A stretch of 32,000 nt of DNA, from the NCBI RefSeq assembly GCF_000018105.1, contig NC_009925.1:1890001-1922000 (forward strand), read 5' to 3'. Positions within the stretch are counted from its first letter, which is position 1. Each line of letters begins with the position of its first letter. The notes beneath the pieces were generated by a model that saw only the letters and a program-made list of their open reading frames with translations, searched no databases and had not been told where the DNA came from. Shown piece by piece: positions 6,700-30,092 of the stretch. The position numbers were made by a program, and so were the translations under genes. This stretch comes from Acaryochloris marina MBIC11017. Lineage in GTDB: Bacteria > Cyanobacteriota > Cyanobacteriia > Thermosynechococcales > Thermosynechococcaceae.

Positions 6700-6726
6700 A
6701 CTCAGTTTTGTAATCGCAAAAGATTC

Positions 6727-7517: not shown

Positions 7518-7531
7518 AGTATATTAGCATC

Positions 7532-8947: not shown

Positions 8948-9177
8948 GAATCAGCGTATTCAGGCCGGTGATTAATCGTTGGAGAGTAGCTAGTCAAGTG
9001 AGTAGGAAAGTTAGGAGTGACGAGACTCGACCAGTAAATGTTGCGTAGGGACTGAACGCTAAAGTGAGAGTGGACATGAAAATTGCCCATTCCTCTCTAC
9101 TAATGTACTCACTTAGCATCCCAAGTGCCCACTGAAGGACAGCTTTTGCTGGCAAACTCACGCCTTATCGAGGATAC

Positions 9178-10602: not shown

Positions 10603-10903
10603 TGTTAAAGTATATCTATATCTTTGTTGAGTCGTCGAGACCACAACAACCATCCAAACGTCCACTTTACAATCCATCGTTTGGGAAAAACCTTGAGAGC
10701 TTCCCTAACTTCTCAAACAGCCTCTTAGTGAATTCAATATCACTAAGCAAAGTTTTTGTGGTTCAACAAGTACCTCAATAAGCCGTAAGATTCAATCATT
10801 CAAAATCTCTGAATAGATTTAGACCATAAATCTTGAAGTATCTAATTTATTCATAAAAAGAATAGATGAAATGCTTAATCAGGTTCAAACAGCATTCTTA
10901 CAT

Positions 10904-12124: not shown

Positions 12125-12148
12125 ATAACCCTAAGCAAGAATAAATGA

Positions 12149-12925: not shown

Positions 12926-12930
12926 AGGTC

Positions 12931-13701: not shown

Positions 13702-13706
13702 CTCCT

Positions 13707-15215
13707 TTATGCCGCCTTTAAATCAGACATTAATTGTTGCAGATCCCCTAAGATGCGCCTGCCCTTGGGAAGTGCGACTAAAGCCGTAAAAAAGCTGAAG
13801 ACCGTCACGACAAACGCAACACAGCACCCCCAAAAAGGCTGAGGTTGAACAAAGTATCGTAGGGTTCCGAGGGCCAAGAGGGTCCAAATTGTCGCAAAGC
13901 CAAGGGGGGCAATAGTTACATAGAAGTCTTTCGTTTTGACGGGCCCCTGTCGCCCCACCACAAAAAATAATAAGGGCATCGTGATTCCTAGGGCGATACT
14001 GGAATAAGAGATAGCCACCCCCAGGGCCTGCCAGGGTAGGCCGACCCCAAACGAGAAAACGGTAATCGTCGAACTCAAAATGCCCCATCGGAATAAATCA
14101 TCCGTTCGATCTTGGGTAATAAATAACCAGCCTACAGAATTGGCGATGGGCCGCATCAGCCCTGAAATTCCCAGTAATGCGAAGATGGCGCTGGCACCGA
14201 GCCACTGAGAGCCCAATAGCACCTGAATCAGCCAATCTGATGCCGAAATCATAAATAGGATAATCGGCAAGGTCAATAGCATGAGTTTTTCTAAGATGCG
14301 CAAATAGACTTGTCGATATCGATGCGGGTTGTCGACTAAGCGGCTGAGTACAGGAACAGCCACATTGGTGATCGGGGCGTTAATTTGGCTAATCGGCAAC
14401 AGCAAAAGTTGATAGGCTTTAGCGTAGAGTCCTAATTGCTGGGAGCCCCAAAACTTACCAATTAAGACGTTGTCCAAATTGAGGGACAAGTAGTTCACAA
14501 TACTGAAGCCAGTGATGTTACTGCCGAAGACCATTAGCGATCGCATCTCCGTATTCCAGGTGGGTAAACCCGGTACCCATCGACAGGCAATCCAAATGCC
14601 CAGCGTATTCACGCTAATCGTCACCAGGGAAAGGGCAATCAGTGACCAGTAGCCCCAACCTAACCCCACACATAGAAAGGCCGCACTCACCCCAGAGAGC
14701 TGGGCAAAAATATCGTTGAAAGCTAAGGCGTTGTATGACATCTGCCGCTGGAGTAGCGCCGTATGCTGTACCCCTAAGCCCCCCATCACAATGCCACCCG
14801 CTAAAGCAATGGTAATCAGGGTCAGTCTCGGCTCATTATAAAAGCCAGCGATCAAAGGTGAGAGGCAAGCGGCGAGGATCGCAACTCCTAAACTAAAGCT
14901 CACATTAATCCAGAACAGCGTACTGACCTGCTCATGATTAATGTCTTCTTTCTGAACCGTCGCCATGGATAGACCCAGATCTTTGAAGATCGTCACAAAG
15001 CCCATGACTGCGGTCACCATCCCCACTAAACCATAGTCATTCGGGGTTAAGAAACGCCCCAACACAACATTGGCCACAAGGGTCAGCGTAAACTTCAACC
15101 CTTGAGCCGTGATCGTGGTTGCACCACCTCGGACAGCGCGTTGCTTTAAATTACCTTGCAAATGCTTCGTACTGAAGAAAGCATCTGCAGTATGGTTAGA
15201 CTTTCGAATACGCAA
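13707..15215 (-). CDS. Wzx-type polysaccharide flippase (MOP/PST superfamily)
   Basis: 502-aa polytopic membrane ORF. N-terminus ..AVRGGATTITAQGLKFTLTLVANVVLGRFLTPNDYGLVGM is typical of polysaccharide biosynthesis (PST) exporters. The start as given is TTG and no nearby ATG exists. Confidence 0.75.
   Translation of the reverse strand: MRIRKSNHTADAFFSTKHLQGNLKQRAVRGGATTITAQGLKFTLTLVANVVLGRFLTPNDYGLVGMVTAVMGFVTIFKDLGLSMATVQKEDINHEQVSTLFWINVSFSLGVAILAACLSPLIAGFYNEPRLTLITIALAGGIVMGGLGVQHTALLQRQMSYNALAFNDIFAQLSGVSAAFLCVGLGWGYWSLIALSLVTISVNTLGIWIACRWVPGLPTWNTEMRSLMVFGSNITGFSIVNYLSLNLDNVLIGKFWGSQQLGLYAKAYQLLLLPISQINAPITNVAVPVLSRLVDNPHRYRQVYLRILEKLMLLTLPIILFMISASDWLIQVLLGSQWLGASAIFALLGISGLMRPIANSVGWLFITQDRTDDLFRWGILSSTITVFSFGVGLPWQALGVAISYSSIALGITMPLLFFVVGRQGPVKTKDFYVTIAPLGFATIWTLLALGTLRYFVQPQPFWGCCVAFVVTVFSFFTALVALPKGRRILGDLQQLMSDLKAA
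14537..14544. repeat. HIP1 octamer GCGATCGC
   Basis: Exact match read in the sequence. Confidence 0.95.
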
Positions 15216-15249
15216 GGGTTCGGCCTGATGATTCGGTCGACAGACTCAC

Positions 15250-17541
15250 TTAAGCTTTTAGGTAAGCATAATTTTTATGAGTGGGCGTAACGCCATTTGC
15301 CACGAGGCCAATCACATTTAATCTCTTGTGAGCAGAAATTGCTTTGGACAATTCTAATCGGGTGACTTGTTTCATTCGCCCCACCATCACAACACCATCG
15401 CACCCTAAACCGATGGGAATGGTATCGACAACGCCCAAAACTGGCGGACTATCAATCAAAATCAAGTCATAGTTATTTTCAAAAGCTTTAAGCACATCTT
15501 GCATCCGTTCTAAGCTCAGTAGCTTGACCGGATCGGCCGATAGCGGCCCCGCCGTTAGTACATCAATGCTGAGATCAGACGGAGGCAACGTTCCTGGATC
15601 CAGCTCAGACTCATCCCACCGCATATACACCCATTGTGGAGTGGTCTGCAGCTCTGCCAAGGTGACATTCCCATTGAGCAGGGTCGATAGTCCTTGGTGG
15701 TTATTCAAGTTAAACATATAGTGCAAGCTTGGATTCCGCAGATCCGCGTCAATCACAAGGACCCGTTGATCTAAGCGGGCAGCACTAATTGCTAGGCCTA
15801 GGGCCAAGGTCGACTTCCCTTCTCCAGCCCCAGCTGAAGTAATCATCAAGGTTTTGTAAGGATTTTTGGTTTGTAACAGCTGAATGTTGGTATAGATTAA
15901 ATCCAAGGATTCTCGCAGGGGCTGCCATTGAAATAGTTCCGGAGTCGTAAAGGTGGGGCTTTGGGTTTCGGCCACCGGCAGAATGAGCGAGTCACGCAAG
16001 TCAGCGCTTGAAAGTTCAGGAATCGCTCCGAGTAAGGGCAAGGGAAACTGATTGCCCAAATCATCTGAGTTATGGAACTTATCATCCATCGCCTCGCGCA
16101 CAAAGGCCGTGAGGCCCCCTAGAAATAGTCCCACCACTGCGCCCAACATTAAGTTACGACGGGCATTGGGGCTAATTTGCACTCCCAGTTGGGGGGCCTC
16201 GACCACTTGCCAATCAAAGCCACCTCGAGCAATCTCTAATCCCAGCTCTTGCCGAGCTTCTAGCAGCTTTTGCAACGTTCCTCGCCGAGTGGAAACTTCT
16301 GGTTGAAGGCGATTGAACTGGGCCAATAATTCAGGGTATTGCTTTAGTTCAGCTGTTAATTTCGCTTCGGTCTGAGCTAAGCTGCGATCGCGTGCTTGGA
16401 GACTCTGCAAGTTTTTCTGGAGCTCGCTCAACTGCCTAACGAGAGATAAATCATTGTCTCCAAACTGGCCTGCGTTGAGCTGATTTTCACTAGTGGGCAA
16501 CTGGCCCGCATCTCCCCCCAATACACGACCGACTTCCTGCTCTAGGAGGGCCAATTGATCTCGGCGCTGATTGAGTAAGTTAAAAATGACGGGATGATCT
16601 TCTGTCAGAGTCTGACGTTTTTGTGCTAGCTCTAATTCCGTTTGCTGAATTTGATTCAACAGAGACTGATACCGAGTCGATTCACTTAACCGAGCCGAAG
16701 TTCGGGCTTGCTCAGGGGCTAGCTGAATCTGCCGCTGCACACTGGTATAGCTGGCATAGGTTTCCCGATATTGAGCATCTAATGCTTGTCGTTCGGTTTT
16801 GATCCGGTCTAAAGCCGCGGATGCCGTTTGGGCTTGAGTGGCAGGGTCAATCACATTGGTGCCACTGCGAAAAGTCTTGAGAGCCGCCTCTGCTTCCAAA
16901 ACGCTGCGGCGAACCTCTGGCAATTGCTTATCAATAAATGCCAAACCTTTGGATAGACGGAGCTTCTGCTGTTCTAAATTGTAGAGTTGGTAGACCGCTA
17001 AAACCGTTTCTAAAATCTCTTGGGTTTTTTCAGGCTGAGTGCTGATATAAGTGGCTTTTAAGACTTTAGTCGCGACCTTGCCTTTACCTGTACTGTCTGG
17101 AGCATACACAGGACTAAAGGACAAGGATGACCGTAAATCCTCAATGGTGATATTCGGATATTCTGTTTGTAGGCGTTCAACAGCCCTAGACAGTACTTCC
17201 GACCCCGCCAACACCTGCAGTTGCGTTGTGAGATCCACTTGAACGTTTGGATCAGCAAACCGATTCTCCGCGGTCTTCGGCCCTAAACCATTGGGTTTGG
17301 ACTGATAGTTAGACTCCACCAGCAGCTGCATCGTGCTTTGATACAGGGGCTGAGTTTTCAACGTTAAGAATATAGAACCGGCAATGGCACCGGCAAAGGC
17401 ACCTAAAAACCAAAATTTCCGCCGGACTAAGATAGAAAGCAGATGTCCATAACCCCAGTCCTTATCAATGGTTTGGGCAATTAAAGCATCCTGTTGATGA
17501 GTAAGCTTATTAGGGGGTTTATATAAACTGCTTTCAGTCAC
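15250..17541 (-). CDS. Wzc/GumC-type polysaccharide co-polymerase fused to a BY-kinase-like P-loop ATPase domain
   Basis: 763-aa ORF with an N-terminal TM helix (FWFLGAFAGAIAGSIFLTL), a long coiled-coil periplasmic region and a second TM helix (LMLGAVVGLFLGGLTAF). The C-terminal domain has Walker A TSAGAGEGKST, Walker A' VLVIDADLRNPS and Walker B DLILIDSPP. GTG start. Confidence 0.85.
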   Translation of the reverse strand: MTESSLYKPPNKLTHQQDALIAQTIDKDWGYGHLLSILVRRKFWFLGAFAGAIAGSIFLTLKTQPLYQSTMQLLVESNYQSKPNGLGPKTAENRFADPNVQVDLTTQLQVLAGSEVLSRAVERLQTEYPNITIEDLRSSLSFSPVYAPDSTGKGKVATKVLKATYISTQPEKTQEILETVLAVYQLYNLEQQKLRLSKGLAFIDKQLPEVRRSVLEAEAALKTFRSGTNVIDPATQAQTASAALDRIKTERQALDAQYRETYASYTSVQRQIQLAPEQARTSARLSESTRYQSLLNQIQQTELELAQKRQTLTEDHPVIFNLLNQRRDQLALLEQEVGRVLGGDAGQLPTSENQLNAGQFGDNDLSLVRQLSELQKNLQSLQARDRSLAQTEAKLTAELKQYPELLAQFNRLQPEVSTRRGTLQKLLEARQELGLEIARGGFDWQVVEAPQLGVQISPNARRNLMLGAVVGLFLGGLTAFVREAMDDKFHNSDDLGNQFPLPLLGAIPELSSADLRDSLILPVAETQSPTFTTPELFQWQPLRESLDLIYTNIQLLQTKNPYKTLMITSAGAGEGKSTLALGLAISAARLDQRVLVIDADLRNPSLHYMFNLNNHQGLSTLLNGNVTLAELQTTPQWVYMRWDESELDPGTLPPSDLSIDVLTAGPLSADPVKLLSLERMQDVLKAFENNYDLILIDSPPVLGVVDTIPIGLGCDGVVMVGRMKQVTRLELSKAISAHKRLNVIGLVANGVTPTHKNYAYLKA
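16384..16391. repeat. HIP1 octamer GCGATCGC
   Basis: Exact match read in the sequence. Confidence 0.95.
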
Positions 17542-17551
17542 AATCTGTATT

Positions 17552-18679
17552 TCAACTTATAGAAGGAACAAAAGAATTTTGATTAATGGGTTGGGTCGGA
17601 TAAATTTGATTAATAACTTGATGAATTTTTTGAAAAAAGACGGGCTCAGAAAAGTGTGACAGGGCATGGTCACGAATATATTGATAGTCCCATTCGATCT
17701 GTTGAGATCGCACGAGCGCTGCCTGCAAGGATGAGGCAGTTTGTTGATGAAAAAACACACCTGTTTGACCTGGGACTTGGGTATCGATAACACCACCTGC
17801 ACCAAAAGAAACCACAGGTGTTCCACTCGCATTCGCTTCGACGGGAACCAAACCATAATCTTCTAGTGCCGCCACGACCACCGCTTTAGCTTTAGACATC
17901 AAATGACAGCGTTCGGCATCAGAGATATACCCTAGAAACTCGACGTTTGACTTAGCACGTCGTTCCAAATGCTCCCGTTCTGGGCCATCTCCCATAATTT
18001 TTAACGGCCAACCTAACTGATTAAACGCATCAATAATAACGTCAACACGCTTATAGCCCAACAGTCGGGCAGATACCAAGAAAAAATCTTCTTTGTGGTC
18101 TGAAAAAGAGAATTTAGAATTATCAATTGGATAATTAACTACTATCGCTTGTTTACTATAAGTCGACTGGATACGGCGGGCGACTTCGGTAGAGTTAGCA
18201 ATATATAGATCAGGTTCTTGGGCATAGGCAAGATCAGCCTTCCTCATCACCCGAAACATTTTCTCAATAAAAGGGTAGAGATGCTGATAATCCGCATACT
18301 CTCTCAAATAAGTTTGGGTATCCCAAAGAAAACGGGTGATGTTATGACAGAAGCAGATATGTTTGGCATCCGGCCGGGTTCGCACCGCTTTTGCAAAGCT
18401 GGTGCTACTGCTAATGATGAGGTCATATTTCTGTAAATCTAACGCCCTAAAAGCTGGATAATAGAAAGGAGCCAACAACCGAAAATACCGAGTAGCTCCG
18501 GGTAATTTTTGCAGAAGGGTTGTATGGACGAGGCGATCTCCCAACTCTATTGTTTGGTGAGGATCATAGAGGGAAGTGAATATATCTGCACTGGGGAAGT
18601 GACGACACAACAGCTCGAAAACCCGCTCAGCGCCTCCGCGTTGGGTCAGATAGTCATGAACTAGGGCAATCTTCATCAT
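17552..18679 (-). CDS. GT4-family glycosyltransferase
   Basis: 375-aa ORF with MMKIALVHDYLTQRGGAERV and LEDYGLVPVEANASGTPVVSFGAGG. Confidence 0.85.
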   Translation of the reverse strand: MMKIALVHDYLTQRGGAERVFELLCRHFPSADIFTSLYDPHQTIELGDRLVHTTLLQKLPGATRYFRLLAPFYYPAFRALDLQKYDLIISSSTSFAKAVRTRPDAKHICFCHNITRFLWDTQTYLREYADYQHLYPFIEKMFRVMRKADLAYAQEPDLYIANSTEVARRIQSTYSKQAIVVNYPIDNSKFSFSDHKEDFFLVSARLLGYKRVDVIIDAFNQLGWPLKIMGDGPEREHLERRAKSNVEFLGYISDAERCHLMSKAKAVVVAALEDYGLVPVEANASGTPVVSFGAGGVIDTQVPGQTGVFFHQQTASSLQAALVRSQQIEWDYQYIRDHALSHFSEPVFFQKIHQVINQIYPTQPINQNSFVPSIS

Positions 18680-19132: not shown

Positions 19133-20947
19133 TTATCGATAGTTCTGGGCTTGGGTTTCAAACATCGATGCATAGACCCCGTTGAGGTTCATCAACGTAT
19201 GATGATTACCTTCCTCAATCATGTGACCTTGTGACATCACATAGATGTAGTCAGCCATCTTAACCGTTGACAATCGGTGACTAATCAAAATAGCGGACTG
19301 ATCTTGAATGAGCTCTCGGAATTGTTGAAAAACCTCATATTCAGCTTTGGGGTCCATTGCACTGGTTGGCTCATCCAGAACAATCACTTGAGAATCCCTT
19401 AAGAAGGCACGAGCCAGAGCGATTTTTTGCCACTGGCCAATACTGAGTTCTTCTCCTTGATCAAACATCTTACCCAGAACGGTATCGTACCCTTGCGGTA
19501 AAGACTGGATGACTCGATCCGCTCCTGATAGTTGAGCCGCCGATCGAATCCGACGATCATCGGCTGGCCGCTCAATATTGCCTAACTGGATATTATCTCG
19601 GGCTGTGAAATGATATTTAGCATAGTCTTGAAAAATGACGCTGATATGGCTTTTTAGCTCAAGCTTACTAAAGCTTTTGAGATCGATGCCATCAATCGTG
19701 ATACTTCCCTCAGTGGGATCATATAGTCGACAAAGTAGTTTAATGAGTGTCGTTTTTCCAGAGCCATTCTCGCCCACCAAGGCAATAACTTGTCCGGGCT
19801 GGAGCTTGAGTGACACATTGTGAATCGCTTTCCGTTTGGTCGTAGCATATTGAAAGCTAACATTATTGAAAACCACTCCAGTAGCCAACGTTTCTGGGAA
19901 AGGCTGCGGGCGTTCGGGTTCCAAGACTTTGGACTCTATATCTAAAAATTCGTATAGATTCGCGAGGAACAAATTATCCTCGTAAAGCCCCGATAGACTT
20001 CGTAACAACCCCCTCAGACTGTTTTGACCTTTTTGCAACGCTTGATAATAGAGGACTAAGTCTCCCAACTTGAGAACGCCTGCCAACGTTTGCTGGACCA
20101 TATAGATAAAAATGGCAAAGACAAATAACCCTGCAATTACCTGAGCCCCAAAAAAGGCAAAGGATCGTTTAGAAACTATCCCTACTTTTTCCTTATAAAT
20201 AAGTTCTCGTAGCTGGGCATACCGCTGTCTGAAATGCTCTCCTAGGTTGAATAATCGAATCTCTTTGGCGAACAAATCACTGGTTTGTAACCACCCCAAA
20301 TACATTGCCTGCCGTTCTAGCTGAGTCCGACGGCGTTTCCAGTGGTACATTACCCCTGCAAATTTCATCCGCACCAATACAGTTGGAATTGCAGCCACAA
20401 ACAGAATTCCGACAATACCCCAATGCAGGGCCAACAATAATCCCAACATTGCTAGTAATGAAATTGAACTTTGCCCTGCTAAGGCCAACCGATCCAAGAT
20501 GCGGGGAGGCCGATAAGGCGCTTCTTGTTGGGCGCGCTGCAGAGCATCATAATATTGGGCATTTTCGTAATACTCTAAGTCAGCCGAAATCGATTTAGAG
20601 TGGATGATGCCCTGCATATAATCCGTGACTCGCTGAGCATGGGCAATGGTAACTAAATCTGATAGAGAGGCAAAGAGGGTCGTACTAATCGTCAAACAAG
20701 CGGCAACAACCAATAAAGGCACGATATCGTTGAGCGCGGCTGCTCGGTTCGAAAGTGCCAAACTAATCGTCACTTGATCGACAATTAGCTTAGTCATATA
20801 AATAGAAAATAAGGGTAGTATGCCCTGAATGATTACCAAGCCAATGCGTGCCAAAGTCCAGTTAGGACTGCTTTGCCAAACCAGTTTTAAAGCTGGGATG
20901 AAGTGCAAAGGGCGTTTAAATCTTGCTTTGATAAATCCAGTCAGCAT
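19133..20947 (-). CDS. ABC transporter, fused permease/ATPase half-transporter; candidate lasso-peptide exporter (D protein)
   Basis: 604-aa ORF with an N-terminal six-TM-type domain. Walker A GENGSGKTTL, signature LSIGQWQKIALARA, Walker B VIVLDEPTSAMD. It lies directly downstream of the precursor genes on the same strand. Confidence 0.85.
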   Translation of the reverse strand: MLTGFIKARFKRPLHFIPALKLVWQSSPNWTLARIGLVIIQGILPLFSIYMTKLIVDQVTISLALSNRAAALNDIVPLLVVAACLTISTTLFASLSDLVTIAHAQRVTDYMQGIIHSKSISADLEYYENAQYYDALQRAQQEAPYRPPRILDRLALAGQSSISLLAMLGLLLALHWGIVGILFVAAIPTVLVRMKFAGVMYHWKRRRTQLERQAMYLGWLQTSDLFAKEIRLFNLGEHFRQRYAQLRELIYKEKVGIVSKRSFAFFGAQVIAGLFVFAIFIYMVQQTLAGVLKLGDLVLYYQALQKGQNSLRGLLRSLSGLYEDNLFLANLYEFLDIESKVLEPERPQPFPETLATGVVFNNVSFQYATTKRKAIHNVSLKLQPGQVIALVGENGSGKTTLIKLLCRLYDPTEGSITIDGIDLKSFSKLELKSHISVIFQDYAKYHFTARDNIQLGNIERPADDRRIRSAAQLSGADRVIQSLPQGYDTVLGKMFDQGEELSIGQWQKIALARAFLRDSQVIVLDEPTSAMDPKAEYEVFQQFRELIQDQSAILISHRLSTVKMADYIYVMSQGHMIEEGNHHTLMNLNGVYASMFETQAQNYR

Positions 20948-21250
20948 AAATTGCCATTTGACAATGCGTAGTGCGAAACTATCCTAACCCTGTAAGCAAA
21001 GCTCAGCGAGGGAGAGGATCGATATAACCGCCCTTAAACAAAAGTCTGGGTTAAACGAATCTGCTATGCCGCTCATAAGTTCGAAACCTCAGAAAGACCA
21101 ACCGACAGATTAAAAAGGCGAAGTCGAGTTCACCATAACTCAGCCCAAAAAGACTGCATCACATAAGCTAGGAGTCTTTTAGCAAAGCTCAAATCGTTAA
21201 TATTTGGCATGCCCTACTATAGGAGGGTGCGATTTTTTCCGTTTTAGCTT

Positions 21251-21285
21251 AAACAAATAGAGCCAGCATTTGGAAGGCTGACTCT
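21251..21285 (-). terminator. Candidate intrinsic terminator/attenuator downstream of precursor A1
   Basis: The minus-strand RNA reads AGAGUCAGC-CUUCCAAAU-GCUGGCUCU. That is a 9-bp stem whose only non-Watson-Crick pair is a G.U in the sense transcript (it would be a C-A mismatch on the other strand). It is followed by AUUUGUUU and sits about 45 nt after the A1 stop. Confidence 0.45.
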
Positions 21286-21327
21286 ACTCGCTTCAATATT
21301 CAGTTGAACAATAACTGAAAAGGATGA

Positions 21328-21468
21328 CTATGACGTTACATCATCAATATCACCAACGGGAATTGTCCCGAAAGGCACATCTGTAGCATTCAATGACGGT
21401 GAATTCTTAGTCATATCTTCTACGCTGCCGTACACCTTCAATTGGGGTGCACCATAGGTTCTTTTCAT
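21328..21468 (-). CDS. Lasso-peptide precursor A1 (46 aa): MKRTYGAPQLKVYGSVEDMTKNSPSLNATDVPFGTIPVGDIDDVTS
   Basis: Hand translation; below the ORF-track size cut-off. Preceded by AAGGAG. The leader fits YxxPxLxxxGxxxxxTx (Y5,P8,L10,G14,T20). It lies between the cyclase and the ABC exporter. Compared with paralog A2, 36/46 residues are identical, and 17 of the identical residues use different synonymous codons. Confidence 0.85.
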   Translation of the reverse strand: MKRTYGAPQLKVYGSVEDMTKNSPSLNATDVPFGTIPVGDIDDVTS

Positions 21469-21550
21469 GGTCTTAGCTTACTCCTTACTTAATCTGTCGC
21501 TGTTTTAGCTTATGCAAGCATTTGCAAGTTAACAGCATCTAACTATAGTC

Positions 21551-21588
21551 AATTAGGTGTTTTACCCCCCAGGTCAGCTGTGAAACAA
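21551..21588 (-). promoter_or_regulatory. Conserved box upstream of A1 (sense strand TTGTTTCACAGCTGACCTGGGGGGTAAAACACCTAATT)
   Basis: Identical, apart from a 1-nt T indel, to 21888-21924 upstream of A2, while the surrounding non-coding sequence has diverged. Function unknown; it could be a promoter/operator or a 5' UTR element. Confidence 0.5.
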
Positions 21589-21652
21589 TCCACGCTGGAC
21601 CAGGACGCCCACATTCTAGCAACAATCAAAAATTAGTGACTGGATAAAATGA

Positions 21653-21793
21653 CTAGGATGTAATGTCGTCGATATCTCCAGGAGGAATGGTTCCAAAGGG
21701 CACATCAATGGCATTGATTGATGGCGCATTCTTCGTCATATCTTCTACGCTTCCGTAGGTTCTGAGTTGAGGTGCGTCATAAAATTTTTTCAT
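21653..21793 (-). CDS. Lasso-peptide precursor A2 (46 aa): MKKFYDAPQLRTYGSVEDMTKNAPSINAIDVPFGTIPPGDIDDITS
   Basis: Hand translation. Preceded by AAGGAG. Same leader motif and same architecture as A1, including the C-terminal Ser. Confidence 0.85.
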   Translation of the reverse strand: MKKFYDAPQLRTYGSVEDMTKNAPSINAIDVPFGTIPPGDIDDITS

Positions 21794-21887
21794 GGCTTTA
21801 GCTTGCTCCTTAAGTCATCTGCTTTTATCAGCTGTTCTGGTTTCCTTATATGGGTTGCCATACAAGTTGACAGCGTCTAATTAAATT

Positions 21888-21924
21888 AATTAGGTGTTTA
21901 CCCCCCAGGTCAGCTGTGAAACAA
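21888..21924 (-). promoter_or_regulatory. Conserved box upstream of A2 (second copy of the 21551-21588 box)
   Basis: See 21551-21588. It contains a CAGCTG palindrome and a G6 run. Confidence 0.5.
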
Positions 21925-22079
21925 GTTTCTAGCCGGACCTTGATACCGTTATTTGACATACTACCCAGTAGGCAAACTTGCCAAGCGGACATCAATTCAG
22001 CATACAAATCCAGTTAAGCTATTATAACTTCTCAAATATTTTGGGGACATTCCAATCCTTAAATATTCATTAGATTTGA

Positions 22080-24050
22080 TTACTGTAGAGTAGATTCGGC
22101 AAAATTGACGCCTAGATTGGCTTGTTGTAGCCAAAGAGTCAAATTAACGGCAATCCAAATCAACAGTGTATCGTTAGCTTCAGCCTCTCCCCTTTGCCAT
22201 CGCTGGACTAACTGAGTGAACTCGTGCATATCAATAAACGTCTCAATGGCATCGGGTGGATGATTGAGAACTTGATGAATTAGGTCCATACCGTACTTTT
22301 CTAGGGTATGGTCAAACGCTGTGCCCAAATTTCCTTTACCGGCACGCCATTGAATTTGAGGAGGAAGAATACCATCCAGTCCACGTCGGATAATTAATCG
22401 AGTCCAACCATTTTGCATCTTTTGTTCTTCTGGTAGAGAAACACAAAATTCCACTAACCGCTTATCCCAAAAGGGAAATCTCAATTCCACTTGGGAGGCA
22501 GCAGCTGTTCGATCCATCACTTCTAGGGTCGAAGAGACTAAGCCAGATGTAACGTCAACGATATGTTCGTGGCGCTGGGAAGGCTGTGCTCCAAAGCGCT
22601 GACGACGCAGGTGTTTATAACGCTGTAGCACGGATGCTCGATCAACAAAGTCTGGGGTGAGGGGGATGGCCCAGGGCCTGGCTGGAGTCACCTCGGACGT
22701 CTTCTGCTGCCCACGGAATTGCCAGCTTTTAACTTTACCTAAAATTTTGGTAATCTTTGTTTTTTTAAGGAGGGGATTGATGCCAAATTTACGGACATAG
22801 GACCGATACAAGGGCCATAAATCGTAACCAAAGCTTTGGCAAAACCCCCTCATCTCGCGCCATAACTTGAGCCACCGTCCTGCCTTGGCCAGAGTACGTA
22901 AATACCCAACACCATGAGATACCGCCTGATCACCATCAAAGCCATCCAATAACACCCTGACCGATTGGCTTTGAGCGATTTGATATAAGGCATGGGTTAA
23001 ATGGGCGTTACAGGCAAATAAGGGTTCGTCTTGGATAGCTAGCATGTGCTGATAATCGGTCCAGGGGCTGAGTTGATCGCCCTGTACATACTGAGGCTCG
23101 ATGGGTCGCTGATGAATCACGGCATTCATAAATTCCTGCTCATCAGATGCCGTAATTTCATTAAACACGGCGGAGAAAGTAGGGAATTTAGCGGTCTCTT
23201 GCGCCTCCTGTCTCAACTGGGCCGTCATACAGGTAATCGAGGAAGAATCAATTCCTCCACTTAACATTGTGCCGATGGAAAATGCACTTCTCAGGCGGCA
23301 GCGCACGGCTTCGGTGAAAATGGATTGAAACTGTTCCGCATAGGCTTGATCGGAGTCCAGCTGAAGTTCAAAGTCAGGATCGAGAGACCAATAGGCTGAG
23401 ATGTCCAAACTGTTTTGGCTTACTGTCATCCGATGAGCAGGAGGAAGACGAACAATCTGCTCATAAAAAGTCATTTCTGCATCAAATAGCATCAGGGTCA
23501 GATAGTCGGCGACCCTGGTTTCATTGAGGGATTTAGGCACTTCCAGCAAATGAAACAGCGCTTTCATTTCGCTGGCAAAGGCAAAGACTTGTTCGGAGGC
23601 ATAGTAAAAGAAGGGCTTGACTCCAAAATGATCGCGGGCGCAAAACAAATGCTGTTGAGTCTCATCCCAAAGGGCAAAGGCAAAATCACCTAAGAAATAT
23701 TCGGGGCATTGTTCGCCCCATTTTTCGTAGGCAGCAAGAATGAGGGCGCTATCGGTAATCACTGCTGAGGGAGACTCTTTCAGACCCAGCTGGGTCATTA
23801 GGTCCACACGGTTATCAATTCGGGCGTCTGCCGTCAAGATTAAAGTTTGGGAAGCGTTGCTAAGGGGTAGCGTTTCAAACCGGGATTCTGGGGTGGTCTG
23901 TAATAAACAATGGCCTAAGCCAACCCTATCTTGACTCCATTCATTGGTTCCATCCGGTCCTCGATGGGATAGAGATTGGACCATTTGGTGCAAATAATCG
24001 CTCCCCTCAGGATGAGGGTGAGGATAGACAAAGCCAGTAATTGCGCTCAT
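22080..24050 (-). CDS. Lasso-peptide cyclase (C protein), asparagine-synthetase B homolog
   Basis: 656-aa ORF. The N-terminus MSAITGF aligns with the AsnB MCGIxG but has Ser where the glutaminase nucleophile Cys is expected. PP-loop ATP-pyrophosphatase motif MLSGGIDSSS. The genomic context is B1/B2/precursors. Confidence 0.85.
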   Translation of the reverse strand: MSAITGFVYPHPHPEGSDYLHQMVQSLSHRGPDGTNEWSQDRVGLGHCLLQTTPESRFETLPLSNASQTLILTADARIDNRVDLMTQLGLKESPSAVITDSALILAAYEKWGEQCPEYFLGDFAFALWDETQQHLFCARDHFGVKPFFYYASEQVFAFASEMKALFHLLEVPKSLNETRVADYLTLMLFDAEMTFYEQIVRLPPAHRMTVSQNSLDISAYWSLDPDFELQLDSDQAYAEQFQSIFTEAVRCRLRSAFSIGTMLSGGIDSSSITCMTAQLRQEAQETAKFPTFSAVFNEITASDEQEFMNAVIHQRPIEPQYVQGDQLSPWTDYQHMLAIQDEPLFACNAHLTHALYQIAQSQSVRVLLDGFDGDQAVSHGVGYLRTLAKAGRWLKLWREMRGFCQSFGYDLWPLYRSYVRKFGINPLLKKTKITKILGKVKSWQFRGQQKTSEVTPARPWAIPLTPDFVDRASVLQRYKHLRRQRFGAQPSQRHEHIVDVTSGLVSSTLEVMDRTAAASQVELRFPFWDKRLVEFCVSLPEEQKMQNGWTRLIIRRGLDGILPPQIQWRAGKGNLGTAFDHTLEKYGMDLIHQVLNHPPDAIETFIDMHEFTQLVQRWQRGEAEANDTLLIWIAVNLTLWLQQANLGVNFAESTLQ

Positions 24051-24070: not shown

Positions 24071-25288
24071 TTAGGAAGTAGAAGTGGGTTCAATCGCTTT
24101 AATCATCAGAAATCCCTCTTGAATCAAGTTTTGAGCTAAGGACAATCGTCCAGCATCGTTAATCAAACCACCAATGTCTTTAACAGCTAGATAGGGATGG
24201 TCAATCAGATCAGTCAGGGAGGTCGCTAGGAAAATAGGAAAGGTTAGACTTTTTTGATAGAAGTTCAAAACGATTTGAGTGGAATCTCTATCAACGGAGA
24301 AGAGAATATTGGGTCTGCGAGCAACGACAGAGTTGAGATTGAGCTGTGGCAGGTAAATCAGATCTTGGAATCGACCTTGGTCTTCTGATTTGCGATCGCA
24401 CAAAAATACCTTATGCTTCCGCTCTACCAGTTCTTCAGTCTTAACATTACTAATTAAGTACTGACTCAGGGTTTGAAACAACTCATAAAAAGCCTGCTGT
24501 TGCTCAGAACTGGAAAAACCGTGGGGAATCGCTTTCCGAAAGGCTGGGTCAGCCTGGGCGATGGTGACCAACTCCTCCAAGAGTTCATAGGCGAAGGTGG
24601 GATATAACCCTAGGGATGCATGCACAGAGGTGGTCTCCTGACTAGCCGCTTGATGGACTACCCCCCGAGGAATATAAAGCAAATCACCAGGCTGAAGCAT
24701 TACCGTTAATTCCGGCTCCGCCAGTTTATGGCGGCCAATACTTTGATCGCGGATGTGAGAGGGGAGTTCAACAGGAGAATGGTAGAGTTTCCATTCCTTT
24801 TCCCCCGTGATTTGGAGAATAAACACATCATGTTCATCGTAATGAGGGGCTAAGCCCTGGGCCTGGGGGGGGGTGATATAGATATTGGTTCGTAGCTTAA
24901 ACTTCAGCTCGCATTCTAGAGCACTGCAAAAATGTCTCAGCTTGGGAATTTTCTTATGAGCCCCATTGATAGTCAAGGTTAAGCCTTGATGCAACAGGCT
25001 ATAGAGCTTGTCGTTATTAATAAAATACTGTTGGGATTTAGAGTGGCGATCACACCAGTCTTCCAGACTGAGCTTATTACCCTGATCCACTAGGCGAAAG
25101 TTATTGTAATCCGCCAACAACGCTTTGTTTTGCAGCAGAAGATCGATGTCCTCTGGCTGTAAAACTGACCCATAAAATGAGGCATCATTCCTTGGCAAAT
25201 AGAGGGTTTTTGTTTCCCAATAGGTCTGGAAAAAATCCTCAATCGTGCAAGGAGAGATTAAACGGGCAAATTGAGACTCAACCTTCAT
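24071..25288 (-). CDS. JmjC/cupin_4-type (ribosomal-oxygenase YcfD/RoxA-like) Fe(II)/2OG oxygenase
   Basis: Facial triad context APHYDEHDVFILQITGEKEWKLY (HxD) and LLYIPRGVVHQA (distal His). The ORF track starts at TTG 25321; the ATG at 25288 (MKVESQ..) is preferred and overlaps the kinase stop by 11 nt. Confidence 0.75.
   Translation of the reverse strand: MKVESQFARLISPCTIEDFFQTYWETKTLYLPRNDASFYGSVLQPEDIDLLLQNKALLADYNNFRLVDQGNKLSLEDWCDRHSKSQQYFINNDKLYSLLHQGLTLTINGAHKKIPKLRHFCSALECELKFKLRTNIYITPPQAQGLAPHYDEHDVFILQITGEKEWKLYHSPVELPSHIRDQSIGRHKLAEPELTVMLQPGDLLYIPRGVVHQAASQETTSVHASLGLYPTFAYELLEELVTIAQADPAFRKAIPHGFSSSEQQQAFYELFQTLSQYLISNVKTEELVERKHKVFLCDRKSEDQGRFQDLIYLPQLNLNSVVARRPNILFSVDRDSTQIVLNFYQKSLTFPIFLATSLTDLIDHPYLAVKDIGGLINDAGRLSLAQNLIQEGFLMIKAIEPTSTS
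24392..24399. repeat. HIP1 octamer GCGATCGC
   Basis: Exact match read in the sequence, inside the lasso cluster. Confidence 0.95.
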
Positions 25289-26183
25289 GGGCCAGGATGT
25301 GATTTTCAACGAGGGTAGCAATGTCCGGTAGTAAGTCGAGGGAGGCTGGCCGTAAGAGACGCAAAAGTGGCACTTGTTGAGCCAGGAGCATCAGTTGCTT
25401 AAAATGGTTGGCTCCTCGCTCCTGCAATAAAGTTTGCTCAAAGCGGGTGACATAGGAGTTTTGCATCAAATGTTGAATAATCTCCTGGGGCGGTAACGGC
25501 TTAATGGCGACTTCCTCCCCCTGTCCCAGCACAAAAATATATCTCAAGGGCAGAATGTCAGACATAAAGCCAGAAGAGAGTTGATGATTGCGCTTTTCTA
25601 AGCGGGCCCCTAGTCGTGGTAAATCCTCGGGCTGCTTGCCAATACAGGTGACCGCATCGGGCCACAGCTTGATTTGTGGAAAGGCAGGCTGTACCTGAAT
25701 TTGATGGCGTTGGACCTCTAGGGCTACCACATCATCCGCAATCAAGCTATGGCCACGATCATGCAAAGTCGCTGCCATCGTGGATTTGCCCCATCGCTTT
25801 TGACCAATAAAGGCCACCGCTTCTCCTTCCAACGCCACGGCACTGGCATGGAGGACCAAAAATCCGCGTTGATGCAGCACAACTCCCATGACCGCACCCA
25901 GAATAAAGAGTCGGAGACGATCCTCATCGAGATCAATCTCTAGATCAATCAGGACATCCTGGCCTTCCTGAATCAAAAACGTACCGACTCCTTGCCAATA
26001 TAAATACATTCCTGAATCGTTATTTTGATAGCAATGCAGGGTGTCTCCCGTCTGCAAAGGACTATCGGTAATGGCATCAAAATGAATCCAGACATCCGCA
26101 TCCGTTGCCAGGGTGGGAATCAGTTCTGGCAGTTTAATTTCAGACTGAAGGGTCAAGCCATAGGCTGAATAAAAGTGGGACAT
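25278..26183 (-). CDS. HPr-kinase/phosphorylase-like P-loop kinase (lasso precursor Ser kinase candidate)
   Basis: 301-aa ORF. P-loop FIGQKRWGKSTMAATL preceded by LHASAVALEGEAVAF and followed by LIADDVV, the arrangement of the HprK C-terminal domain. Sits in the lasso-cluster context. Confidence 0.75.
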   Translation of the reverse strand: MSHFYSAYGLTLQSEIKLPELIPTLATDADVWIHFDAITDSPLQTGDTLHCYQNNDSGMYLYWQGVGTFLIQEGQDVLIDLEIDLDEDRLRLFILGAVMGVVLHQRGFLVLHASAVALEGEAVAFIGQKRWGKSTMAATLHDRGHSLIADDVVALEVQRHQIQVQPAFPQIKLWPDAVTCIGKQPEDLPRLGARLEKRNHQLSSGFMSDILPLRYIFVLGQGEEVAIKPLPPQEIIQHLMQNSYVTRFEQTLLQERGANHFKQLMLLAQQVPLLRLLRPASLDLLPDIATLVENHILAHEG

Positions 26184-26312: not shown

Positions 26313-27236
26313 TTACCGTTGGTCCCGAGGTAGTAATTTCTTGAGTTTGGATCTTAGTTTTTTGAGAAAGGGTTGAGTGGGTTGAGGCTCGTTTGCCGTA
26401 AACAGTTTATAAATTAATGCTTCGAACAGGGGATTTGGCGCCATAGAGTCCGGATGAATGATGGCATCTAAATTCAAATTAAAGGTTGGCAACTCATTTA
26501 AACCTTGGTTCCCTTGGGTATGACTGCCTTGAGTGCCAATATTGGAAATCAGATTGACCTTCGGCACAACGGTGAGACCGTCCTGAGCGAGACAAGAATA
26601 AAACCATGGAATATCCCAAACCTGTTGGTTCTGATAGGCCCAGTCAAATAATTGGGTCACCCAATCCGTGAGGGCCTGTTGCTCAAAAAATTGGGGTTGG
26701 GTTTGCTTGAACTGAGGCCACCCCGTCATCGTGAGGTCGTTGCCTTGCCACGCTCTGCGCCAAGAGGCCCATCCCCAAGACACAAAAAATTTAGAGAAGA
26801 CATAGGTCTGGGGAATAGAAAGGGTATCTCGCAAAAAATTACTCCCCGAGATGGTCTTGACTTGGAATTGATGACGGTACTGAGCTAACATCCCTTGGCA
26901 AAACGGGAAAAAGCTGGGATGGGGAAGACAGTCATCTTCTAAAATGATCGCTTCTTCCACCTGAGAGAACACCCAGTCCAACCCCTGGACATTACAAGAC
27001 CGTCCCCCCAGGTTCGATTCAGCAAAACGGGTGAACACCTCGCACTCCCAATCCACTTGATCAACAATCGCCCTTGCTTGCTGGCATAAATCATCATCCT
27101 CGGGCACATCAGCTCTCGGGCCATCCGCAACGATAAACAAGGTTGACGGTTTGACTTGGGCAATCGCTGCAAATACCTGATTCGAATATTGCGGACGATT
27201 GAAAATATGAAGGGCAACGGGAGTGGAAAAAGGCAT
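26313..27236 (-). CDS. GT-A-fold glycosyltransferase (GNT-I / 'HlpA-like' type)
   Basis: 307-aa ORF with VALHIFNRPQY...LFIVADGPR, AIILEDDCLPHPSFFPF (an EDD motif in DxD position) and WGWASWRRAW. From memory this pattern matches bacterial GNT-I-like glycosyltransferases. No search was run. Confidence 0.55.
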   Translation of the reverse strand: MPFSTPVALHIFNRPQYSNQVFAAIAQVKPSTLFIVADGPRADVPEDDDLCQQARAIVDQVDWECEVFTRFAESNLGGRSCNVQGLDWVFSQVEEAIILEDDCLPHPSFFPFCQGMLAQYRHQFQVKTISGSNFLRDTLSIPQTYVFSKFFVSWGWASWRRAWQGNDLTMTGWPQFKQTQPQFFEQQALTDWVTQLFDWAYQNQQVWDIPWFYSCLAQDGLTVVPKVNLISNIGTQGSHTQGNQGLNELPTFNLNLDAIIHPDSMAPNPLFEALIYKLFTANEPQPTQPFLKKLRSKLKKLLPRDQR

Positions 27237-27250: not shown

Positions 27251-27859
27251 TCAGACAAACCAGCTGACAATGGTGAATCGTTCACCATGGGTGACGGGTT
27301 TAACTTCATGCCAGAGATCGGAACGGAAAGCGATCAGCTGGCCTTGTTCCGGTTCTAAGGGAAAGCCATAGTTTTGACCACGAGCATCATTGAGTAACCC
27401 ATAGAGCGCTAAGGCTCCCCCCCCAAAGGTCTGAGGACTAGGCTCAGCGGACATGCCGTTGAGAAAAATAATTAAAGACACTAATCGATTTTTTTCAAAC
27501 TTGGAGCCCGGTAGGCTCGGATCGATCACATCTCGATGCAGGCCAAAAAAGTCGCCCACTTGATAGCGGTAGCAGGAGGGAGGTTCAAGGGCATGGAGTT
27601 GAACCTCAAAATGAGTTTCTAATCGCGGTTTGATGGCAATTAAGCGCTCACGAATCCCCTTGATCGTGGTTGGGCTGATTTGCAACTGGCCTGTTTTCCG
27701 TCGACTATCGTCGGTCACAGCCTCCCCGTATCGGGTGAGACGAGCAGGCTCACAGGGGCAGGTCTGTGCTTCCGTGAGGTAGGACTCACAGAATTGTGGA
27801 TCTAAGAAGCCAGGGTCTACAAATACCCCCAAGCGTTCAAAAAAAGCAGCGCTAGGCAT
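27251..27859 (-). CDS. Prolyl-4-hydroxylase-like Fe(II)/2OG oxygenase (2OG-FeII_Oxy_3 type)
   Basis: 202-aa ORF with YQVGDFFGLHRDV (HxD), SLIIFLN...GGALAL, LIAFRSDLWHEVKPV (distal His) and GERFTIVSWF (2OG-binding Arg). Confidence 0.75.
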   Translation of the reverse strand: MPSAAFFERLGVFVDPGFLDPQFCESYLTEAQTCPCEPARLTRYGEAVTDDSRRKTGQLQISPTTIKGIRERLIAIKPRLETHFEVQLHALEPPSCYRYQVGDFFGLHRDVIDPSLPGSKFEKNRLVSLIIFLNGMSAEPSPQTFGGGALALYGLLNDARGQNYGFPLEPEQGQLIAFRSDLWHEVKPVTHGERFTIVSWFV

Positions 27860-27929: not shown

Positions 27930-28388
27930 TTAGATCTTGGACTCAAACGATGGCATCGGCGTAAAGCGAGATAAGTCCTTCACAAAACCCATGATCACTT
28001 GCCCTTGTAGTTCAACCCAGGCATGGGCTTCAAGGGAATGATCCTCTGCTTTCGCGACCCCAATTTTTAGCTCGGGTTCATAGCCTCGTCGGCAAATTAA
28101 GACTTGCGTAACGAGGGCTCGGGCTAAACATTTCACGTGTCCTGGCATAAATCGGCTACTAGTGTTCACTGCCCAGATCACTTTTCCGACAGTTCTACGA
28201 CTAATCTTTCTGAGGGTAGGGGTTTGATAGTAGGCAGGGGGGTTGTGAAAATTGGCCAGCCATTTCTGCAGGATTTTGAAAGGCAGCAACCACAATCCCA
28301 ATCGAACCAAACCCAACAAAACGTAGGTTTTGATCAAGAGAGTGCGATCGCAACTTTGCAACCGCAAAAATTTAAGCAGTGGCGACAT
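27930..28388 (-). CDS. Lasso-peptide leader peptidase B2 (transglutaminase-like Cys protease)
   Basis: Motifs HVKCLARALVTQVLICRRGYEPELKIGV (catalytic Cys) and LEAHAWVELQGQVI (His). The ATG at 28388 is preferred over TTG at 28400. It overlaps the B1 stop by 17 nt. Confidence 0.85.
   Translation of the reverse strand: MSPLLKFLRLQSCDRTLLIKTYVLLGLVRLGLWLLPFKILQKWLANFHNPPAYYQTPTLRKISRRTVGKVIWAVNTSSRFMPGHVKCLARALVTQVLICRRGYEPELKIGVAKAEDHSLEAHAWVELQGQVIMGFVKDLSRFTPMPSFESKI
28344..28351. repeat. HIP1 octamer GCGATCGC
   Basis: Exact match read in the sequence, inside the lasso cluster. Confidence 0.95.
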
Positions 28389-28677
28389 CTTTGATCTCAA
28401 TCAAATCTGATTCAACCAGTTCATTCAGCAACCTGAGGACATCCTGTTCACACTGGTCCGACTCAACTTCGTACTGGTCCAGAATTTGGTCGCAGATGTC
28501 TTTAACCGATCGAGGTTGCTGAAGTAAATTCCAAATACTTGCACCCACTTCATTCAAACCGAAGTACATTCCTGTCTTCAGGTTGAGAATTACTGATTCC
28601 CCTGCTAAGTCAGATGAGACTTGCTCTGGGGTCGCAACAACCGTTGTATTCGTTGAAATAGTGGTAGTCAAACTCAT
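28372..28677 (-). CDS. Lasso-peptide B1 protein (PqqD-like RiPP recognition element)
   Basis: 101-aa ORF with LAGESVILNLKTGMYFGLNEVGASIWNLL...ICDQILDQYEV....CEQDVLRLLNELVESDLI, the PqqD-family pattern. Confidence 0.85.
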   Translation of the reverse strand: MSLTTTISTNTTVVATPEQVSSDLAGESVILNLKTGMYFGLNEVGASIWNLLQQPRSVKDICDQILDQYEVESDQCEQDVLRLLNELVESDLIEIKDVATA

Positions 28678-28865: not shown

Positions 28866-30092
28866 TTACGGATTAGGATCACAGAATTTTTCAACGCAGC
28901 GCACAAAAATCTCCACACCCATAGCTAAGGCAGTCTCATCAAAATCGAACTGGGGATGGTGATGGGGATAGGCTAAGCCTCGATCGGCGTTGGCTGAGCC
29001 TAAAAAGAAGTAACAGCCTGGCACTTCTTGTAAAAAGAAGGACATGTCTTCTCCACCCATGGTTTGGCAATTGGGAACAACGCCTGTCGGTGTTTCAATA
29101 ACTTCAGTACTGACGGAGCGAATCAAATCTGAGATCGCAGCATCGTTAATCACCGGTGGATACAGCCGCCAATAGTTGAGGTCGTAGGTGGCTCCCCAGC
29201 TTTGGCAAATCCCTGTGAGAATATCCTGCATCCGTGGCTCAATCAGATGGGCCAATTCCGGGTCAAAGTAGCGCACCGTGCCGCTCATAAAGCTGGAGTC
29301 GGCAATCACATTAGATGCCGTGCCCGCATGGAGTTGCCCGATGGTCACCACTGCGGAATTAAGGGGATTGACATGGCGAGCCACAATCGCTTGCAGGGCA
29401 TTAACGATTTGAGCACTAATCACCACTGCATCAGTGGTTTGATGGGGCATAGCTCCATGGCCCCCCTTGCCCTGAATCTTGCATTCAAATAAATCCACGG
29501 CAGCCATCAGTGGACCCGATTTTATGCCCACCGTACCGAGGGGAAGGTTATTCCATAAGTGGAGGCCAATAATGGCGTCCACTTGTGGGTTTTGCAGAAC
29601 CCCTGCTTCAATCATGGGCTTGGCCCCACCGGGAGACTCTTCCGCAGGCTGGAAAATGATCTTGACCGTACCGGCAAAGTCCTGGCGATGCTGAGATAAG
29701 TAGCGAGCGGTTCCTAGGGCAATGGCCGTATGCCCATCATGACCACAGGCATGCATCACTCCATCATGGCGTGACCGATAGGAAACCGTATTCTCTTCCT
29801 GAATGGGTAAGGCATCCATATCTGCCCGAATGGCTAACACTGGCCCCGGTTGCTCTCCAATGATGGTAGCCATAATGCCCGTTTCAGCAATGGCAGTTTG
29901 ATGCTCAATGCCCCATTCTGTTAAGCGTTGGGCTACAAATTCAGCAGTGAGATGTTCTTTGAATCCAAGTTCTGGATATTGATGCAGATGCCGCCGCCAA
30001 GACACCAAGTCTAGGTGCTGGATATCTGGACGAATAGTGGTGGCAGCATGAGAAGGCGAAGAAACCATAATGCTCTTACTCAAGCAAGACAA
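28866..30092 (-). CDS. M20D-family amidohydrolase (N-acyl-amino-acid amidohydrolase / hippurate-hydrolase-like)
   Basis: 408-aa ORF with WRRHLHQYPELGFKE, MHACGHDGH and IIFQPAEE. The listed start is TTG; an alternative ATG is at 30068. Confidence 0.8.
   Translation of the reverse strand: MSCLSKSIMVSSPSHAATTIRPDIQHLDLVSWRRHLHQYPELGFKEHLTAEFVAQRLTEWGIEHQTAIAETGIMATIIGEQPGPVLAIRADMDALPIQEENTVSYRSRHDGVMHACGHDGHTAIALGTARYLSQHRQDFAGTVKIIFQPAEESPGGAKPMIEAGVLQNPQVDAIIGLHLWNNLPLGTVGIKSGPLMAAVDLFECKIQGKGGHGAMPHQTTDAVVISAQIVNALQAIVARHVNPLNSAVVTIGQLHAGTASNVIADSSFMSGTVRYFDPELAHLIEPRMQDILTGICQSWGATYDLNYWRLYPPVINDAAISDLIRSVSTEVIETPTGVVPNCQTMGGEDMSFFLQEVPGCYFFLGSANADRGLAYPHHHPQFDFDETALAMGVEIFVRCVEKFCDPNP

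Follow-up and report, generated by a model that had tools for sequence, protein, structure and literature searches.

Two tandem genes, very likely lasso peptide precursors, in a putative kinase-tailored cluster of Acaryochloris marina MBIC11017

Kinase-tailored class II lasso peptides from Bacillota make up the paeninodin/pseudomycoidin group, to which proteobacterial peptides such as SyanA are related. A His-Lys-Asp-Asp signature has been reported for lasso-tailoring kinases (PMC9266682), and according to the literature, kinases with this signature phosphorylate the C-terminal Ser of the precursor. The leader motif YxxPxLxxxGxxxxxTx is documented for lasso precursors (PMC6856326). A putative cyanobacterial lasso cluster has been noted in Stanieria cyanosphaera PCC 7437; alongside its cyclase and precursor it has a PsmK-type kinase, and it lacks B genes (Zyubko et al. 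2019). This study was concerned with two small genes, A1 and A2, which lie in tandem in a stretch of 32,000 nucleotides (nt) of Acaryochloris marina MBIC11017 (contig NC_009925.1, positions 1,890,001 to 1,922,000). The whole stretch is called the window, and all coordinates are positions within it. A2 and A1 are very likely two translated precursor genes of one lasso peptide cluster. This interpretation was proposed in an initial annotation made from the letters of the DNA alone, and it is supported by selection, by the leader, by the neighbouring machinery and by orthology.

A1 (21328..21468) and A2 (21653..21793) are both located on the minus strand, and each consists of 46 codons followed by TAG. 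Translation of 21468-21328 gives the A1 peptide MKRTYGAPQLKVYGSVEDMTKNSPSLNATDVPFGTIPVGDIDDVTS, and translation of 21793-21653 gives the A2 peptide MKKFYDAPQLRTYGSVEDMTKNAPSINAIDVPFGTIPPGDIDDITS; both match the initial translations exactly. The A1 peptide is divided into the leader MKRTYGAPQLKVYGSVEDMTK and the predicted core NSPSLNATDVPFGTIPVGDIDDVTS, and the A2 peptide into the leader MKKFYDAPQLRTYGSVEDMTK and the predicted core NAPSINAIDVPFGTIPPGDIDDITS. The ATG of each gene is the earliest in-frame start after the preceding stop, so there is no longer version of either open reading frame (ORF). The ribosome-binding site AAGGAG, previously noted ahead of both ORFs, is present on the minus strand at 21481..21486 for A1 and at 21806..21811 for A2, 12 nt ahead of the ATG in each case, and AGGAG is unchanged in 13 of 13 aligned units from other loci. 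The two genes had been described as missed. They were indeed absent from the first-stage ORF track, which applied a length threshold, but they are called in GenBank and RefSeq and in every orthologous locus examined. Exact-sequence look-up identified A1 as ABW26931.1 / WP_012162433.1 / B0CEG5 ("Lasso peptide" in UniProt) and A2 as ABW26932.1 / WP_012162434.1 / B0CEG6 ("Uncharacterized protein"), on a 6.5-Mb replicon. A1 and A2 are not new genes, as they are annotated in GenBank and A1 is already labelled a lasso peptide. Two sets of longer database entries were set aside. The 711-residue members of the 90%-identity cluster of A1 are an unrelated C39 ATP-binding cassette (ABC) transporter and represent a clustering artefact, and the 74- and 55-residue "read-through" forms of A1 and A2 (one 1584-nt Logan contig, with TAG read as Gln) are most likely an artefact of the genetic code used in gene calling.

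A1 and A2 are identical at 36 of 46 residues. By codon, 19 positions are identical, 17 differ synonymously and 10 differ non-synonymously, and the replacements comprise five in the leader and five in the core; the counts reported in the initial annotation were thus reproduced. By the Nei-Gojobori method, there are 23.8 differences at 30.8 synonymous sites and 15.2 at 107.2 non-synonymous sites. The corresponding proportions are pS=0.77, which is saturated, and pN=0.14, with pN/pS=0.18 and a binomial p=1.6e-7 against neutrality. Thus, the proposed purifying selection was confirmed, although the suggested check by dN/dS could be carried out only in part, because dS is saturated and a formal dN/dS is undefined for the pair; pN/pS=0.18 is the supported statement. 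Among orthologues, pN/pS is 0.11 for A1 and 0.08 for A2 (range over comparisons 0.08-0.3), and therefore both copies have been maintained. A1 and A2 are conserved protein-coding sequences under strong purifying selection. The sole comparison without clear purifying selection involved the precursors at 2766-2906 of locus L011 and 883-1023 of locus L013 (loci from other genomes are given by our own numbers). Their pN/pS is 0.82, with replacements concentrated in the core tail (GTGLNPDVDDITS compared with GTIPANDIDDVTS), which would fit core diversification.

The leader motif provides a second line of evidence. In a six-frame translation of the 32-kb window, Y..P.L...G.....T. has exactly two matches, A1 and A2, compared with 0.025 expected from shuffled sequences, so the exact fit claimed for Y5-P8-L10-G14-T20 was upheld. 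The NCBIfam hidden Markov model (HMM) NF033528 (lasso_cyano), which has a curated cutoff of 33, scored A1 at 33.0 bits (E=4e-8) and A2 at 32.0 bits (E=9e-8), and it aligned only to the leader of each peptide (model positions 1-21 of 35). The UniProt naming, in which A1 is named and A2 is not, mirrors this one-bit gap around the cutoff. Both peptides retain a DVPFG motif, and both have Asp at core position 9, where an Asp or Glu at position 7, 8 or 9 is expected for macrolactam closure. This Asp9 and the C-terminal Ser46 are invariant across the Acaryochloris homologues.

The third line of evidence is the gene neighbourhood. All genes between 1050 and 30092 of the window are on the minus strand, and those of the cluster are transcribed in the order B1, B2, prolyl-4-hydroxylase (P4H)-type oxygenase, GT-A glycosyltransferase, kinase, JmjC oxygenase, cyclase, A2, A1 and exporter. 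The PqqD-like RiPP (peptide that is ribosomally synthesized and then post-translationally modified) recognition element B1 (28372..28677; NF033536, 87.5 bits), the transglutaminase-like lasso leader peptidase B2 (27930..28400; NF033537, 118.6 bits) and the Asn-synthase-like lasso cyclase C (22080..24050; NF033535, 905.7 bits where the cutoff is 525; SGGIDS as PP-loop, at residue 264) each score above the curated NCBIfam cutoff. A2 and A1 are co-oriented with the cyclase and directly downstream of it, and as small ORFs beside C, B2 and B1 they have the context by which lasso precursors are recognized. An MsbA-like ABC exporter, D, is found at 19133..20947 by Pfam and NCBIfam, and an M20 peptidase precedes the cluster at 28866-30092 (Pfam).

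Four further genes are interleaved with this core. The HprK-like protein (25278..26183; Pfam, PDB) matches HPr kinase in the PDB at 6e-5 and has H112, a Walker A motif GQKRWGKST (K133) and D150-D151. It is probably the kinase for the C-terminal Ser of A1 and A2. The JmjC/cupin-4 2-oxoglutarate (2OG) oxygenase (24071..25321; H160-x-D162; Pfam, PDB) has MINA53 and NO66, both protein hydroxylases, as its most similar proteins (E about 1e-31), with weaker similarity to YxbC and YcfD, and a 2OG-Fe(II) oxygenase of the P4H/PKHD type is located at 27251..27859 (H108-x-D110; Pfam, PDB). The fourth protein, of 307 residues (26313..27236), had no match in PDB, Pfam or NCBIfam by single-sequence and profile searches. 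It has more than 7800 homologues in a mostly unannotated family, a few of which are named family-2 or family-A glycosyltransferases. Its AlphaFold model (predicted local distance difference test score 88.7) matched POMGNT1 and GnT-I in Foldseek at E about 1e-10, and an EDD motif (residues 100-102) is invariant in its family. Because of the match of the predicted structure and the invariant EDD, this protein is confidently predicted to be a GT-A fold glycosyltransferase. The A1 and A2 peptides are probably the substrates of the two oxygenases and of the glycosyltransferase, which would add hydroxyl and sugar groups; these enzymes are assigned to the peptides because their genes are interleaved with the core genes and are conserved with them in L010/L015.

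The fourth line of evidence is orthology. Among 5.8 billion proteins, homologues of the peptide fell into no more than six clusters at 90% identity, each of them Acaryochloris-like. In eight orthologous loci, two of them from complete genomes (CP064923.1 and CP071717.1), the gene order is the same and both small genes are called as coding sequences, so the frames, which the initial annotation had required to be open in related genomes, remain open and the genes are kept. Other Acaryochloris lineages have a single precursor at the same position (L001/L016, L010/L015/L019, L011, L013 and L014), and only the clade of A. marina, CCMEE 5410 and "Moss Beach" has the duplication. Loci were also fetched through cyclase homologues alone, without reference to the peptide, and the homologous small ORFs that had been suggested as a check were found beside the cyclases. 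At 65-66% cyclase identity (L015, L016), a precursor homologue of 46-48 residues directly follows the cyclase. At 49-50% identity (L017 and Pleurocapsa L018), the cyclase is followed by an ORF of 43-52 residues with the same leader, an Asp 8 residues past Thr-x, then VPQGT, and a C-terminal Ser, with a kinase, an ABC exporter and an NTP_transf_5 protein as neighbours; in L018, PqqD is present and B2 was not detected. In L018 (3895-16462), a cyclase, a precursor and a kinase occur twice in succession, and the cores of the two sets are very different (precursors of 52 and 46 residues); a single PqqD, a single ABC exporter and a single NTP_transf_5 protein are common to both sets. When 1.84 billion representatives were searched with a profile, 26 matches were returned, and the 20 inspected were all short peptides with the same plan. 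A scan of genome contigs with the cyclase as a single query returned no match, as its patterns were too specific; a rescan with the peptide alignment returned one locus only, from a metagenome-assembled genome, and a scan of metagenomes returned one further locus, from a lineage already sampled. The ORFs of 30 and 26 residues between A1 and the exporter were not conserved in any orthologous locus and were rejected as rival precursors in the gap between cyclase and exporter.

The following pathway is proposed by analogy with what is established for split-B lasso systems and for tailoring of the paeninodin type. The PqqD protein B1 would bind the YxxPxL leader, and the HprK-like kinase would phosphorylate Ser46 on the linear precursor before cleavage, as in paeninodin. 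B2 would then cleave after Thr20-Lys21, and the cyclase would adenylate Asp9 and join it to the amine of Asn1, giving a 9-membered ring and a 16-residue tail. The predicted products are two 25-residue Asn1-Asp9 lassos which differ at core positions 2, 5, 8, 17 and 23. The JmjC and P4H-type oxygenases and the GT-A glycosyltransferase would add hydroxyl and sugar groups, and the ABC transporter would export the finished product. Each precursor gene would have its own upstream block, and a terminator after A1 would end a short transcript.

Several points weigh against this reading. First, the 12-nt spacer between the Shine-Dalgarno sequence and the ATG exceeds the optimum in both genes. Secondly, the match of A2 to the precursor model is confined to the leader and lies 1 bit under the cutoff. 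Third, Asn is non-canonical as ring residue 1, and the residue that follows it is Gly, Ala or Ser in 22 of 27 relatives. Fourth, the L010/L015/L019 lineage has no PqqD or B2 gene within 8-10 kb of the cluster. Fifth, the glycosyltransferase gene is absent from the otherwise syntenic L016 and could instead belong to the neighbouring polysaccharide genes, and the substrates proposed for this enzyme and for the two oxygenases are guesses. Lastly, a literature search found no mention of the A1 and A2 accessions, of this cluster or of an Acaryochloris lasso peptide, and the phrase "cyanobacterial lasso peptide" did not occur in the literature searched.

The step of the pathway that is least certain is the position of the leader cut. 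The initial annotation had placed the Thr at -2. The canonical spacing of the motif agrees with this placement and would put the cut after Thr-Lys, although cleavage one residue further on is conceivable. Under the Thr(-2) rule, core position 1 is Asn, and not the usual small residue (Gly, Ala, Ser or Cys). A small residue at position 1 is a usual feature of the class and is not strictly defining. If the leader were cut after Asn22, with Thr at -3, the same genes would still give a lasso product, with cores SPSLNATD... and APSINAID..., a canonical Ser or Ala at position 1 and an 8-membered ring closed at Asp8. This later cut is considered unlikely, although the preference for Gly, Ala or Ser at the residue after Asn1 speaks for it. 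In the 27 relatives, the residue after Thr-x is Asn or Gln in 22, with the canonical Gly, Ala or Ser next in 22; the Asp is found 8-9 residues past Thr-x and is followed by VPxG, with a C-terminal Ser in 24, so a later cut would give ring sizes of 7-8, an allowed range. However, the Y5-P8-L10-G14-T20 spacing matches the canonical motif with Thr at -2, and paeninodin-type relatives close the ring from an N-terminal Ala directly after Thr-x. Asn1 is favoured because of this canonical spacing and because the rings of characterised relatives begin right after Thr-x. In paeninodin, the second residue is Gly and the ring Asp is at position 9, in which case Gly, Ala or Ser at position 2 would simply be a family trait. 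The predicted mass of the core minus H2O is 2512.197 Da for A1 and 2520.238 Da for A2 with the Asn1 cut, which are 8.04 Da apart, and 2398.154 Da (A1) and 2406.195 Da (A2) with the later cut.

It is quite improbable that only one of the two genes is a productive precursor, with the other being redundant, a regulator or a decoy. The single copy in most Acaryochloris lineages and the score of A2 just under the curated HMM cutoff are compatible with such a division. However, each gene is under strong purifying selection among its own orthologues (pN/pS 0.11 for A1 and 0.08 for A2), both keep the leader motif, Asp9, DVPFG, the C-terminal Ser, the ribosome-binding site and the upstream block, and several A genes in one lasso cluster are normal.

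Less probable still is that A1 and A2 are modified only by the kinase, the hydroxylases and the glycosyltransferase, giving linear or otherwise processed peptides instead of threaded lassos. HprK-like kinase clusters without lasso enzymes do exist among the RiPPs of Bacillota (PMC13381572), and pseudomycoidin made without the tailoring steps appears to be unthreaded. The L010/L015/L019 lineage, which lacks nearby B1 and B2, also fits such peptides; however, its tailoring genes, cyclase, precursor and exporter are present, its leader is fully conserved, and it still keeps the cyclase beside the peptide. In the window, the cyclase immediately upstream of the precursors is full-length and its PP-loop is intact, B1 and B2 are both present, and every family member examined has an Asp at position 8 or 9.

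The coding status of the ORFs was assessed with a frame control. In the true frame, the codon differences of the A1/A2 pair are 17 synonymous and 10 non-synonymous, and no stop interrupts either gene; the shifted frames have 2/28 and 2/29, with 9 and 6 stops; the nucleotide differences at codon positions 1/2/3 are 7/7/25. The suggestion that the ORFs are non-coding, as duplicated regulatory sequence open by accident, thus has next to no probability and is already effectively refuted, for although the ORFs are short and the flanking non-coding DNA is conserved too, neither this positional bias nor the control frames agree with it, and the frames are open in every lineage despite saturated synonymous divergence.

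The conserved non-coding DNA was duplicated along with the gene. A block of about 130 nt lies upstream of A1 on the minus strand (21487..21625), and a second copy of the same element lies upstream of A2 (21812..21939, minus strand). The A1 copy carries TGCTAGAAT, an inverted repeat GGTCCAGC...GCTGACC, and GGGGGGTAAAACACC. The inverted repeat has the form GGTC(C)AGC...GCTGACC and is a perfect 9-bp repeat in L015. The block also has an imperfect palindrome, CTAATT-N6-AGTTAG, and GCTGT...ACAGC around a variable hairpin. Its 20-mer core, CAGCTGACCTGGGGGGTAAA, has just two occurrences in the window, at 21561-21580 and 21897-21916. Conservation of the block extends across Acaryochloris lineages. In the A2 unit the block is even more conserved than the gene, since a comparison of MBIC 11017 with "Moss Beach" gives 0.94 for the A2 block and 0.85 for the A2 coding sequence. 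L017 and L018 have in common a different upstream block of their own. In L007 (CP071717.1), near 9541, the G-run of the A2 block has 10 G, compared with 6 G in all other loci; the difference reflects either misassembly of the homopolymer or genuine length variation within a conserved element.

Several functions were considered for this block. As a coding region it was rejected, since insertions and deletions break every frame (the A1 unit and the A2 unit differ by 1 nt, and the G-run is 10 in L007 and 6 elsewhere). A structured RNA was not established: the fold z-scores were 0.18 and -2.5, the helices found by RNAalifold had little covariation (3 of 22 pairs), and an Rfam search over 20900-22150 returned nothing meaningful. 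A promoter scan found no sigma-70-like site on the minus strand, and promoters proposed by eye (TGCTAGAAT as an extended -10, and TTGTTT-N18-TAAAAC) were dropped as they were inconsistent between the two units. The block may be a promoter, an operator or a 5' untranslated region.

After A1, a hairpin resembling an intrinsic terminator is located at 21251..21293 on the minus strand, with a stem of 17 bp, the 3' arm of which leads into a U-rich tract (total fold energy -28.4 kcal/mol, z=-5.2), and a small hairpin (21299-21319, minus strand) lies between it and A1. Equivalent hairpins of different sequence follow the last precursor in L001, L011, L013 and L010, with pairing kept by compensatory changes. 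The hairpin at 21251-21293 would set the exporter gene apart from the precursor transcript, and with a terminator after A1 much more precursor than enzyme could be made, for which such an arrangement is usual.

Downstream of the exporter is a Wzx/Wzy-type polysaccharide locus (1050-18679), which contains GT4 glycosyltransferase, Wzz/bacterial tyrosine kinase, Wzx, Wzy and methyltransferase genes. The lasso cluster also adjoins polysaccharide genes in L015, L016, L017 and L018, which include cyclases only about 50% identical. Because this adjacency recurs in Acaryochloris and in distant cyanobacteria, it suggests a possible functional link. An IS630-like transposase (4347-5595, minus strand), split into a helix-turn-helix ORF (5059-5595) and a DDE_3 ORF (4347-5042), is inserted among the glycosyltransferase and methyltransferase genes of this locus.

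Little is at stake for A1 and A2 themselves, since the genome was published long ago and the pair could be found by any RiPP-mining tool, although A2, one bit short of the curated cutoff, deserves annotation as the second precursor. What is of interest is the predicted tailoring chemistry of the cluster, rather than the fact that the genes exist. The cluster offers a defined candidate for a heavily tailored lasso from a chlorophyll-d cyanobacterium, for which exact predicted masses are available. In addition, the natural A1/A2 pair and the single-copy orthologues differ in their cores and provide a ready series of variants with which to learn what substrates the cyclase, kinase, hydroxylases and glycosyltransferase tolerate. 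Taken jointly, the proposals would make A1 and A2 the first characterised cyanobacterial lassos, with an Asn1 ring, a combination of phospho-Ser, JmjC/P4H hydroxylation and GnT-I-like glycosylation unreported for the class, a duplicated control element of about 130 nt and a tie to a polysaccharide locus; this full combination is put forward only tentatively, as rather doubtful in its entirety.

In comparison with known systems, the A1/A2 cluster is best described as a putative kinase-tailored, paeninodin-like class II lasso system with a cyanobacterial-type cyclase and precursor leader. The two features by which the kinase-tailored group is recognized, a terminal Ser and a kinase with His-Lys-Asp-Asp, are both found here. 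Like paeninodin and pseudomycoidin, the system has split B1 and B2, a cyclase, an ABC exporter, an HprK-like kinase with that signature and a precursor ending in Ser, and its predicted ring, as in that group, joins an internal Asp to the residue that follows Thr-x. It differs from that group in its cyanobacterial host and in its predicted ring residue 1, which is Asn where theirs is Ala, and the A1 and A2 cores have no detectable similarity to any NCBIfam paeninodin-type model. Furthermore, no PsmN / NTP_transf_5 domain, which is typical of the group, was found in the window, where JmjC, P4H-type and GT-A enzymes appear in its place; the distant cyanobacterial relatives L017 and L018 do retain NTP_transf_5. 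With respect to the cyanobacterial lassos of NF033528/NF033535, the cyclase of the window is a clear member, while the A1 and A2 cores fall outside the alignment of the precursor model. Unlike the Stanieria cluster, the window has B1 and B2, and it is the L010/L015/L019 lineage that resembles Stanieria in being B-less. Precedents exist for both predicted kinds of tailoring, in canucin A for Fe/2OG hydroxylation of a lasso precursor (CanE) and in the davasins for O-glycosylation of a lasso peptide (IgtG). The enzyme families differ, however, as the oxygenases of the window are of the ribosomal-oxygenase-type JmjC and P4H/PKHD families, with predicted activity, whereas canucin uses CanE, and the glycosyltransferase is predicted to be a soluble, GnT-I-like GT-A enzyme, whereas IgtG is a membrane-bound deacetylase/GT2 fusion. 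Only the tailoring set, the conserved upstream DNA block and the terminator are less ordinary features of this cluster.

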